Notes: generated from the sequence alone by a model not told the origin. Shown: positions 17,210 through 53,666, counted from the first letter of the stretch. The stretch is DNA of 64,000 nucleotides from Cyanobacteriota bacterium (GCA_033764955.1 JANRIL010000028.1:1-64000), one strand, 5' to 3'. A program made the numbers and translations.

Positions 17210-17443
17210 ACGGTCATTTTCAGGTTAAGAATTGTCAAGAAAACCCTTCCCCTACTCCGATCAAAACTCCTTGATAAAGGCGTTAGGAAGGGATCACAAT
17301 TGCGTAAAATAGTAGCGGCTGATTCACCTTGCCAAGCTGAACTTACCCCCATTTAGAATACTCATCACTTTCCAGATTTTGGCGTTGGATCCCTTTCCAT
17401 GCACCATGCGAGTTGTTAACAAGCTACTTTTTTGAGGTTAGTC

Positions 17444-18253
17444 ATGCGGTATCGCCCATTCCTTGCTGTTTTTGTATCGGTGATTGTCACACTCTTTGCG
17501 GTTTGTGGCAGTGCCTCCGCTGCCAGCAAAACTCCTTTGACCTATGATCAAATCCGTAACACGGGCAAGGCAGCCATTTGCCCCACCGTCGGGGATGATG
17601 CTCGGGGCAAAATCGAAGTGCCCCTTGGCAAAACGGTCAAATTGACTGACATCTGCCTCCAGCCAGTCCGAATTGAGGTGGAAGAAGAAAAGCGTAACGG
17701 CGAGAAAGAATTTATTCAGGCCAAGTCTATTCTCCTGCCCGCCGCCTCTCTCGGACCAATCAAAGCAGAAGTGTCCGCCCAAGACAGCACGACTCTTTCC
17801 CTGAGGGTGACGGATGGGATGACCACTCAACCCACCACCGGGCAGATGCCGCGCCGCGAGTTGGTGCCCTTCCTGTTTAGTGTGAAGAACTTGCAGGCGG
17901 TGGCCAAAGGCTCGGATGCTTCCATCAATTCCTCGACTGACTTTGAGGGCAATTTCCTGGTGCCGGGTTACCATACCAGCCAATTTTTGGATCCCCGTGG
18001 ACGCGGCTCAGGCACGGGCTATGAAGTGGCAGTTGGCTTGCAAGGAACTGAGTCGGATGCTTTTGAAACCAACCAGAAAGTGGATGAGATTTCGGAAGGA
18101 CACCTCTCCCTACGGATTGCTCGTGTCGATGGCTCCACCGGAGAACTGGCGGGATCCTTTGTTAGCCTACAACCCTCTAGCACCGAGCAGGGCGCTCTAG
18201 AATCCAAATTAGTGCGTGTCCAGGGCCTGTTCTACGGGCGGGTTGATAGCTAG
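17444..18253 (+). CDS. psbO: Photosystem II manganese-stabilizing protein
   Basis: Signal peptide, LTYDQI..TG.A..CP, C-L-Q-P, VPFLFSVKNL, FLDPRGRG..TGY, TGELAG.F.S.QPS. Confidence 0.92.
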   Translation: MRYRPFLAVFVSVIVTLFAVCGSASAASKTPLTYDQIRNTGKAAICPTVGDDARGKIEVPLGKTVKLTDICLQPVRIEVEEEKRNGEKEFIQAKSILLPAASLGPIKAEVSAQDSTTLSLRVTDGMTTQPTTGQMPRRELVPFLFSVKNLQAVAKGSDASINSSTDFEGNFLVPGYHTSQFLDPRGRGSGTGYEVAVGLQGTESDAFETNQKVDEISEGHLSLRIARVDGSTGELAGSFVSLQPSSTEQGALESKLVRVQGLFYGRVDS

Positions 18254-18366: not shown

Positions 18367-18395
18367 TTGACGGACTAGGCATCTTGGCGTAGGCT
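18367..18395 (+). promoter_or_regulatory. Sigma70-type promoter for the leader/DAHP synthase transcript
   Basis: TTGACG-N17-TAGGCT. Confidence 0.55.
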
Positions 18396-18485
18396 ACGAA
18401 TATAAGCTCGATTGAGTCTTTTCCGATCAGCCCTCATCACTCGGTTTCCCTAAAACTTGATCCTAATCTGCTCGAATTTCCCCGT

Positions 18486-18572
18486 ATGACCTTCCATTCT
18501 TACTTTTTTGGCTACTTTACCAGCCCCTGGCATGAGTCAGGGCGAACGGGTACTGAGCAGATAAAAGTCTGA
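18486..18572 (+). CDS. Putative aromatic-amino-acid attenuator leader peptide (MTFHSYFFGYFTSPWHESGRTGTEQIKV)
   Basis: 28-codon ORF with 4 Phe, 2 Tyr and 1 Trp in the first 15 codons, upstream of a terminator and the DAHP synthase gene. Confidence 0.75.
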   Translation: MTFHSYFFGYFTSPWHESGRTGTEQIKV

Positions 18573-18596
18573 ATATGCTTTATCGAATCAAACCCT

Positions 18597-18628
18597 AGCC
18601 CTGAGCCAACCCTAGCTCAGGGCTTTTT
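18597..18628 (+). terminator. Attenuator terminator hairpin in the DAHP synthase leader
   Basis: AGCCCTGAGC-caacccta-GCTCAGGGCT-TTTT, perfect 10-bp stem ending about 60 nt before the start codon. Confidence 0.85.
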
Positions 18629-18687
18629 AATGGTTGTTCCGGTTCCCTTCTGCTTTTCCCTTCGCATTCTAAGGATCTCTGACTGTC

Positions 18688-19758
18688 ATGGTTGTCAATA
18701 CTGAAAATTGCCATATTTTGGAGGCGGTTCCTTTGGTTTCTCCAAATGCTATTAAGGCCAAATTGCCCCTGACCGAGCCAGTGGTGCGGGTAGTGCTGCA
18801 AACCCGTGAGGCCATCCGCGATATTATCCATGGCCGGGATCCCCATCGGTTAGTGGTGATTGTGGGGCCTTGCTCCATTCATGACCCCAGCGCCGCCTAT
18901 GACTATGCCCACCGCCTCAAGCAGGTGGCGGAGGCGACGGCAGAACAACTGGTCATTGTGATGCGTACCTACTTTGAGAAACCCCGCACCACAGTGGGTT
19001 GGAAGGGATTGATTAATGATCCTCACCTAGATGGCAGTTGTGATATCGCTCAAGGATTAGAAATGGCTCGTTCCATTCTGCTCGACATCAATCACTTGGG
19101 ACTGCCCTGTGCGGTGGAAATGCTGGATCCCGTAACTCCCCAATACATGGCGGATCTGGTCAGTTGGGCAGCAATTGGGGCACGCACCATTGAGAGCCAA
19201 ACCCACCGAGAAATGGCCAGCGGTCTGTCCATGCCCGTGGGCTTCAAAAACGGGACGGACGGACGGCTGCAAATTGCCTTGAATGCGATTATTTCCGCTA
19301 GCCACCCCCACAGCTTTTTGGGGATTAACCAAGATGGCATGACGGCTACGGTCAAAACATCGGGCAACCCCGACCGTCATATCGTTTTGCGAGGCGGTGG
19401 CGGTAAGACCAATTATGGAGTCGCAGATGTGGCGGATGCGGCAGCCCTCATGGCAGAACAGGGAATTACCCGTCCGGTGATGGTGGACTGCTCCCACGAC
19501 AATTCCAATAAAGACTATCGGCAGCAGGGATCCGTTTGCCGCGAGGTCTTGCGCCAGTTTGGGGACGGGCAAAAAGCCATCATGGGATTGATGATTGAGA
19601 GTAACCTTAACCCCGGCAAACAATCCTGGTCAGAAGGTTGCCAACTGGATTATGGCGTTTCCATCACTGATGGTTGTATTGGCTGGGCTGAAACGGAAAC
19701 GCTCCTCATGGAGATGGCTCAGATGGTGAAAGGGAAAGATTTCGCTCTACTCCGATAG
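18688..19758 (+). CDS. 3-deoxy-7-phosphoheptulonate (DAHP) synthase, type I-alpha (AroF/G/H-like)
   Basis: GPCSIHD, RTYFEKPRTTVGWKGLINDP, AIGART.ESQTHRE.ASGLS.PVGFKNGTDG, DCSH, YGVSITDGC. Confidence 0.95.
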   Translation: MVVNTENCHILEAVPLVSPNAIKAKLPLTEPVVRVVLQTREAIRDIIHGRDPHRLVVIVGPCSIHDPSAAYDYAHRLKQVAEATAEQLVIVMRTYFEKPRTTVGWKGLINDPHLDGSCDIAQGLEMARSILLDINHLGLPCAVEMLDPVTPQYMADLVSWAAIGARTIESQTHREMASGLSMPVGFKNGTDGRLQIALNAIISASHPHSFLGINQDGMTATVKTSGNPDRHIVLRGGGGKTNYGVADVADAAALMAEQGITRPVMVDCSHDNSNKDYRQQGSVCREVLRQFGDGQKAIMGLMIESNLNPGKQSWSEGCQLDYGVSITDGCIGWAETETLLMEMAQMVKGKDFALLR

Positions 19759-53462: not shown

Positions 53463-53620
53463 TTTGTTTTAGCGATTGATTGACGAATCGTTTTAGCAAT
53501 TTTCGCTACTTAGCTATCCCAGGCTCTTTCCCTCTCGGTCTCAGTCTGGGCTGGCCAAAATCCCGAAAAATCTGGCTAAACTGTGATGAGTTTTATCAGA
53601 CATATACGTGTATTCATTAT

Positions 53621-53666
53621 GTTTTGTATCTGGAGATACAAAACGACTCATATTTGTTGATAGTCT
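53621..53666 (+). promoter_or_regulatory. NtcA-activated promoter for the asparaginase-like gene
   Basis: GTTTTGTATC-TGGA-GATACAAAAC perfect inverted repeat containing GTA-N8-TAC, then N21 and TAGTCT (TAN3T). Confidence 0.75.

Follow-up and report, generated by a model that had tools for sequence, protein, structure and literature searches.

A predicted Phe/Tyr-sensing transcription attenuator before the class I-alpha DAHP synthase gene in a family of cyanobacteria

Locus organization

[quoted passage not shown] A first-pass annotation, made by a model from the sequence alone, had proposed that this leader is a ribosome-dependent attenuator for aromatic amino acids. The promoter-like TTGACG-N17-TAGGCT, the uORF, the segments 1 to 4 and the U run which it described were all present where it had placed them. 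The features of the unit are:

18367..18395, + strand, predicted sigma70-type promoter (-35 TTGACG at 18367-72, 17-nt spacer, -10 TAGGCT at 18390-95)
18486..18572, + strand, leader uORF of 28 amino acids (predicted control codons F3, Y6, F7, F8, Y10 and F11; Trp15 at the switch boundary)
18516-21 (1a) and 18525-31 (1b), + strand, segment 1, 5' arm of the protector or pause helix 1:2 (fold -15.6 kcal/mol)
18536-43 (2a) and 18548-52 (2b), + strand, segment 2, inside the uORF, with segment 1 or segment 3 as partner
18591..18606, + strand, segment 3 (3a 18592-95, 3b 18597-606), 3' arm of 2:3 and 5' arm of 3:4
18615-24, + strand, segment 4, 3' arm of the terminator 3:4
18597..18628, + strand, intrinsic-terminator hairpin 3:4 (perfect 10 bp, 8-nt loop, U5 tract at 18624-28)
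18670..18676, + strand, Shine-Dalgarno-like AAGGA before the DAHP synthase start, in none of the four segments
18688..19758, + strand, class I-alpha DAHP synthase (AroF/G/H family), 356 amino acids (TIGR00034 484 bits, PRK12755 514 bits)

The hairpin 3:4 is indeed a perfect 10-bp terminator with U run, and its energy was -19.2 kcal/mol. The pairings 1:2 and 2:3 also held, but each has an extension which had been missed, 18518-21 with 18549-52 for 1:2 and 18548-51 with 18592-95 for 2:3. With the extension, 1:2 had -15.6 kcal/mol, and the 2:3 conformation had -25.5 kcal/mol. The fold of the leader had a z value of -3.7 against 200 shuffles.

Seven aromatic codons are found within the first 15 codons of the uORF (F3, Y6, F7, F8, Y10, F11 and W15), just as had been noticed, and the binomial probability of at least seven aromatic codons among 14 is 4e-5 with the aromatic codon frequency of 7.9% in this genome. 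There were 65 arrangements of terminator, uORF and downstream open reading frame in the genome, and only two of them reach six aromatic codons in nine; the second one has a weak hairpin (-9.6 kcal/mol). This rough scan of 65 arrangements gave no further convincing amino-acid leader.

The predicted promoter would place the start site near 18402. Its weak point is the consensus score of only 8/12, which is under the threshold, and it was not listed by the consensus scan. Its support comes from positional conservation and not from the score: TTGAC[G/T]-N17/18-TAnnnT was found upstream of the uORF in 10 of 11 family genomes outside one genus (g2), and genus g2 had a conserved TATAnT -10 in 12/12 genomes.

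Conservation within the family

The class I-alpha gene was searched in 41 genomes, and 39 were positive. The DAHP synthase of the window was 70-81% identical to those of 22 relatives in the same family, which we take to be most likely Thermostichaceae, and 50-57% identical to the full-length matches of other cyanobacteria. The unit of leader and DAHP synthase was present in all 23 family genomes, and the covariance model found exactly one leader copy in each of them, these genomes being largely its training set. The family sample is dominated by the 12 genomes of genus g2, and the genome of the window belongs to a different genus. The leader also lies before an 81% identical DAHP synthase in the records Synechococcus sp. 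H60.4 and Thermostichus sp. A purine motif like AAGGA precedes the DAHP synthase start in the homologues inspected for it too. Among other cyanobacterial families, none of the 27 class I-alpha genes examined, 20 of them picked by us, had a leader and terminator before it.

A lack of uORF conservation had been named among the results that would speak against the attenuator proposal; the uORF was found in 23/23 family genomes. An in-frame start (21 ATG, 2 GTG) lies 14-17 codons before an invariant Trp in every one of them, and each leader has 4-6 Phe/Tyr codons before this Trp. Codon positions were counted from the Trp on 21 leaders (L003 and L006 were dropped as near-copies of L002). Positions -5/-4 were Tyr-Phe in 21/21; position -2 was Phe in 14, Tyr in 4 and Ser in 3, and position -7 was Phe in 19. 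Phe/Tyr interchange and synonymous changes occurred at -2, -7 and -8, and free variation at -12 to -9. The interchange and the synonymous changes, together with the invariant Tyr-Phe, point to a coding signal in the uORF. The Trp codon TGG is invariant in 21/21, and 6 of the 23 family leaders carry an extra Trp at codon 3. The leader stop codon lies 3' of the segment 2 core in 23/23 genomes.

The Tyr at -5 (18513-18519 in the window) is TAC in 21/21 leaders, though TAC is the rarer in the genome (0.76% against 1.93%).

RNA structure

In the 21 family sequences the six core base pairs of helix 1:2 were 99.2% paired and its extension 85.7%, and the six core pairs of 2:3 were kept in 21/21. RNAalifold, unprompted, picked 2:3 with its extension on the family alignment. 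For the terminator 3:4, 99.5% of cells were paired on the model-fitted alignment A3. The predicted antiterminator 2:3 is mutually exclusive with the predicted terminator 3:4.

No significant Rfam family (4227 families) was obtained for the window, L009 or L047; the best leader-type match was Leu_leader with 11.9 bits against a gathering threshold of 50. T-box and riboswitch readings were dropped, and there was no T-box match to E 10 in this search.

Modelling of the switch

The switch was modelled with a ribosome mask, in which the RNA was covered up to 13 nt beyond the A-site codon's first base and the transcript was cut just before segment 4. The rule was calibrated on Escherichia coli trpL and pheL, and both switch at the correct codons under the same rule. 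As the mean of the 21 homologues, segment 3 was sequestered to 0.98-0.99 for A-site codons -8 to -1, to 0.55 at Trp, where 3/6 pairs are left, and to 0.23-0.32 beyond it and at the stop. The pattern was unchanged at 55 °C. It means that stalls on Phe/Tyr predict read-through and completion of the leader predicts termination.

A stall at Trp15 leaves the same residue as Thr13 of trpL, one codon past the last "on" codon, and the window score at Trp15 was 0.81, 0.50 and 0.02 with footprints of 11, 13 and 15 nt. TGG is the sense codon forced there by helix 1:2, and the TGA matching segment 3 would be a stop. According to the model, Trp15 is probably not a control codon. So the claim that one leader senses several aromatic amino acids is kept for Phe and Tyr and is doubtful for Trp, whose stall leaves just 3/6 core antiterminator pairs.

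Without ribosome, 2:3 formed to 0.97 in the window, with mean 0.57 and range 0.02-0.99 among the homologues and 0.08 in trpL. Because the stop lies 3' of segment 2 and 2:3 forms ribosome-free, we infer that the main off-signal would come from the passage of the ribosome over segment 2, and 1:2 would be mainly a pause or default helix. The masking of segment 1, which had been taken as the switch, would not be the whole of it, as the stop position in 23/23 genomes and the frequent ribosome-free 2:3 indicate.

Proposed mechanism

The leader is very probably a ribosome-mediated transcription attenuator of DAHP synthase, predicted to sense charged tRNA-Phe and tRNA-Tyr; conservation, covariation and geometry together give good support to the ribosome-dependent Phe/Tyr attenuator of the first-pass annotation. 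RNA polymerase would start near 18402 and, as a ribosome takes up the uORF, probably pause at hairpin 1:2. If Phe and Tyr are plentiful, the ribosome would pass Trp15, cross segment 2 and reach the stop 24 nt before the terminator; segment 3 would then be free, 3:4 would form, and transcription would end near 18628. If Phe or Tyr is scarce, the ribosome would wait on codons 3-11, with segment 1 weakened or masked and segment 2 free, and 2:3 (7+4 bp) would capture segment 3 so that the DAHP synthase gene is transcribed. Shortage of Trp alone would give little read-through.

Contigs from four metatranscriptome runs, among 24 with the region of a relative, bridge leader, terminator and gene; the region is known there as contigs only, which are uninformative on start, ends, strand and level. 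This limit is one of several points that weigh against the proposed attenuator. No Shine-Dalgarno was seen in the sequence before the uORF at 18486, and the U-tract is interrupted in three leaders (L017, L018 and L020). Hairpin 1:2, though conserved, does not reliably beat 2:3 ribosome-free at equilibrium. The full terminator wins at equilibrium in nearly all ribosome positions, as for trpL, so the switch relies on assumed co-transcriptional kinetics. The leader of Corynebacterium glutamicum ignores Tyr despite its Tyr codon, and by this analogy the sensing of Tyr here is not assured.

Covariation belongs to the same weighing. Compensatory changes had been suggested as a check, and within the family covariation of 1:2 and 2:3 in 21 sequences was not above shuffles, with too little variation. 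In an alignment of 29 sequences, 1:2 plus 3:4 exceeded all 500 shuffles, a signal which comes from an alignment fitted to that same structure. One covarying base was found across 67 distinct leaders, a set including eight missed by the regular-expression search: its segment 2/3 pair was A-U in 56, G-C in 8, G-U in 3 and A-C in none, and its segment 3/4 pair was U-A in 48, U-G in 11, C-G in 8 and C-A in none. These leaders are kin and the eight G-C cases are related, so the p-values overstate and the covariation is supportive only.

In metatranscriptome run X1 there is an adapter-joined contig that starts from L011:1293, 13 nt upstream of the leader ATG; it is seen in 1/4 runs and was not counted as evidence.

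Alternative explanations

The same attenuator might also use Trp15 as a working control codon, and one leader would then sense all three aromatic amino acids. The invariant TGG, the score which is still 0.81 with an 11-nt footprint, and the 4-bp extension 2b:3a which stays free during a Trp15 stall would fit with this, as would the tandem Trp-Trp at that position in many metagenomic homologues and the extra Trp at codon 3 in 6/23 family leaders. But the score drops to 0.50-0.02 at 13-15 nt, and as far as the available text of a 2016 paper describes, the ribosome covers 12 nt beyond the codon (PMC4833913), which is the 15-nt case. The stall also leaves the same three bases as Thr13 of trpL, TGG is the sense codon that preserves helix 1:2, and the homologue L033 has Gly there, its Trp sitting upstream among the control codons. 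We regard a working Trp15 as unlikely. An arrest peptide would give the opposite output: as in TnaC, a free aromatic amino acid or other ligand would stall the ribosome at or just after Pro-Trp on segment 2 and promote termination. YFxxPW is conserved at a fixed 14-17 codons from the start, and the positions from W to +2 fall in the terminating zone of the mask model. However, Pro, Trp and Gly coincide with paired bases, homologues swap Pro for Thr, Ser or Ala, the stop shifts (right after WR in L169 and L179), residues around YFxxPW vary freely, and codon sensing explains the Phe/Tyr cluster; such a peptide is very improbable here.

The hairpin could also be a constitutive terminator only, with an untranslated uORF, either for an upstream gene or as a fixed damper of the DAHP synthase promoter. 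The neighbour in the window is:

17432..18253, + strand, psbO (PF01716 269 bits), upstream neighbour, outside the conserved unit

It is on the same strand, 232 nt upstream, and is followed by just a weak hairpin, and the uORF has no Shine-Dalgarno, which would suit a simple terminator. Against this, the upstream gene differs among genera: the other 22 family genomes have genes other than psbO there, some of them divergent, and the possibility raised at first that the hairpin merely ends psbO read-through was rejected on this synteny. The hairpin, the uORF frame and segment 2 accompany DAHP synthase across phyla, and a constitutive terminator would need neither a covarying segment 2 nor Phe/Tyr codons, so we give this explanation the slightest chance of all. 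Lastly, the leader might be translated and sense Phe/Tyr while transcription outruns translation, with control exerted post-transcriptionally (RNA stability or downstream translation) or through a long protein-assisted pause. Uncoupled "runaway" transcription may be widespread, to go by the accessible part of one report (PMC7858274), and 1:2 is weak relative to 2:3. But the switch ends in a hairpin with U-tract, and none of the segments includes the downstream Shine-Dalgarno. Moreover, a rough scan of the own genome, with no control genome, put only 5 of 68 terminators behind long open reading frames within 12 nt of the stop codon, the median distance being 53 nt, and this is unlike the runaway signature. 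An outrunning polymerase therefore seems improbable, and transcription attenuation by a coupled ribosome stays the preferred explanation.

The psbO gene has one copy in the assembly by tblastn.

Homologues in other phyla and origin of the gene

The nearest proteins outside the family were 66-73% identical and, where named, belonged to Binatia/Deltaproteobacteria, Nitrospirota, Planctomycetota and Myxococcota. There were 76 non-family genome loci with enough upstream DNA (from 80, two being too short and two belonging to the family), and the leader was called by reading the sequence. The same leader design was found in 16 of the 76: Myxococcota 8/12, Binatota 2/8, Actinomycetota 2/2, Spirochaetota 1/1 and unassigned 3/6. 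Of these non-family leaders, L085 is poor in aromatic codons and L097 diverges from the rest. In a search of the window and 97 of 116 loci with model R1, for which only the family had been used, ten held-out leaders were recovered in front of class I-alpha genes from other phyla, nine with E values of 4e-10 to 9e-3 and one with 0.04.

A gene-blind pattern search of metagenomes gave 49 matches, of which 42 were distinct. DAHP synthase was beside 44 of the 46 evaluable ones (43 by tblastn and one more by blastp); as for the remaining matches, three end within 44 nt, and two, which are one sequence, are chance matches without terminator. The 3' terminator arm was not part of the search pattern and follows in 47/49. 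In two metagenome contigs (L169 and L179) the stop lies after segment 1 and before segment 2, as in classical trpL, which means that stop placement is plastic among homologous leaders. Judged by these comparisons, the leader represents an RNA family which Rfam lacks and to which Myxococcota, Binatia and metagenomes contribute members.

Eight non-cyanobacterial loci (L043, L047, L049, L074, L091, L098, L104 and L042) have a -10-like hexamer no more than about 15 nt from the start of the leader. Such positions suggest leaderless or near-leaderless translation.

A tree of 72 rows, drawn from 130 proteins with redundant rows omitted, placed the family as one group (support 96) within a larger clade (support 99) that also includes Myxococcota, Binatia and Nitrospirota, and 15 other cyanobacterial copies, same-order relatives included, formed a separate 97-supported clade; supports are Shimodaira-Hasegawa-like approximate likelihood ratio values from quick searches. 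A 50-row mixture-model tree agrees (supports 95, 99 and 98). On these trees the DAHP synthase gene was probably acquired by transfer. Gene and leader were probably acquired together, by the ancestor of the family, from a lineage of Myxococcota/Binatia type. Three things count against the transfer. Nitrospirota, though the nearest large group with a related enzyme, had the leader in 0/44 loci (L036-L096); a tree constrained to unite the family with the core cyanobacteria is worse by 40.7 log units, with a p of 0.04 in the approximately unbiased test, which is marginal; and the non-cyanobacterial rows of the tree were chosen by similarity to the query.

The genome of the window also has a class I-beta aroF with ferredoxin-like domain (G000:C48:30548-31264; L112:1222-2289), which lies behind rpsO and a PAM68-like gene without leader. 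With this copy as query, class I-beta aroF was not found in 5/5 relatives, and class II DAHP synthase was not found in 5/5 genomes (four relatives and the own genome). It means that in G001, G019, G014 and G003 no DAHP synthase was found besides the one behind the leader.

Comparison with known systems

The design with four segments (1:2, 2:3 and 3:4) and with control codons in the same "on" zone is shared with E. coli pheL-pheA and trpL-trpE. The window leader differs in that it targets DAHP synthase, mixes Phe and Tyr codons and stops beyond segment 2; none of the 23 family genomes has the stop at or before the start of segment 2, as in the narrow trpL/pheL architecture. The end of pheL (Phe-Thr-Phe-Pro-stop; L113:300-347) has 14 bases identical in five of six leaders checked (L008, L009, L012, L021 and L199), covering the last four codons and the first two stop bases, and leaders of the window type have Trp for the stop. 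pheL is not retrieved by the family models: its best score was 13.5 bits with E 0.46, and R1 did not return it up to E 0.5. The resemblance could be either convergence or remote kinship.

The closest tested case is aroR-aroF of C. glutamicum, where, as given in the available portions of three papers, stalling at a Phe-Tyr-Phe leader on Phe limitation raises transcription and Tyr has no effect (PMC11802643, PMC4046766, PMC7356990). Compared by description, this system likewise has a leader containing Phe and Tyr codons in front of its DAHP synthase gene; it is actinobacterial, with Phe-Tyr-Phe against the 4-6 Phe/Tyr codons of the window family. Predicted control of DAHP synthase by uORF or terminator is also described, in the passages available, for Acholeplasma (the uORFC-13-1 motif before aroF, PMC8632094), Vibrio (attenuators before aroA-I-alpha-tyrA, PMC1173090) and Shewanella (an attenuator before aroF, PMC2659441); by these descriptions the cases are computational and belong to other phyla.

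The first-pass annotation knew of no leader-peptide attenuation for cyanobacterial shikimate genes. For the present unit no published case was found either, but a different aromatic leader stands in front of short class I-beta aroF copies elsewhere in cyanobacteria: in 20 cyanobacterial loci picked for this (L128-L147) a Phe/Tyr/Trp-rich uORF with terminator was found in 20/20, with two uORFs in 19. Those leaders belong to another enzyme class, are mostly tandem, have Trp inside the aromatic cluster and have different terminator sequences; model R2 scores them just 15-24 bits. The window leader is a distinct unit, with a class I-alpha target and one unit per genome. The 2016 paper states, in its accessible text, that there were no reliable data on attenuation in cyanobacteria (PMC4833913), and in Synechocystis the attenuator peptide Sml0012 is suggested, in the part of the preprint at hand, for aroQ translation (bioRxiv 10.64898/2025.12.20.695498), a different gene and arrangement. 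Full-text searches for a leader-peptide attenuator of DAHP synthase in cyanobacteria gave none; they did not extend to subscription papers or to supplements, which could contain an earlier prediction.

Significance

What is new here is the RNA family, the run-over geometry and a phylum in which no published case was found; the mechanism itself is textbook, with the tested Corynebacterium precedent on the same enzyme. We incline, with slightly better than even confidence, to the view that a portable cassette, consisting of class I-alpha DAHP synthase and a Phe/Tyr attenuator whose undescribed RNA family Myxococcota and Binatia have as well, came into the ancestor of this early-branching family, took the place of the native enzymes in most members and is still functional. 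If so, the only shikimate gate in hot-spring Thermostichus-type cyanobacteria would be run by "run-over" attenuation, in which translation melts the antiterminator; cyanobacteria would couple transcription to translation, and attenuation of the DAHP step would have been recruited at least twice. If the leader works, it would offer a direct, single-locus test of transcription-translation coupling in cyanobacteria, explain the gene-level setting of shikimate flux in a family in which a second DAHP synthase often seems to be missing, and give an example of a regulatory RNA that crossed phyla together with its gene.

Minor matches

The search of 151 genomes of the class gave no strong model match outside the family among the best 22 candidates per genome, from which weak members may escape. 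Weak matches in G128 and G053 were ordinary terminators behind other genes. In the window itself, a match at 53498-53627 (E 0.09) was not recovered in the genome-wide search and was rejected. One genome of the same order has a weak model match (G026:C108:25226-25351, 26 bits, E 0.025) on a contig other than that of its class I-alpha gene. One class I-alpha DAHP synthase match (L028, G035:C1:63403-64449) has one internal TGA.

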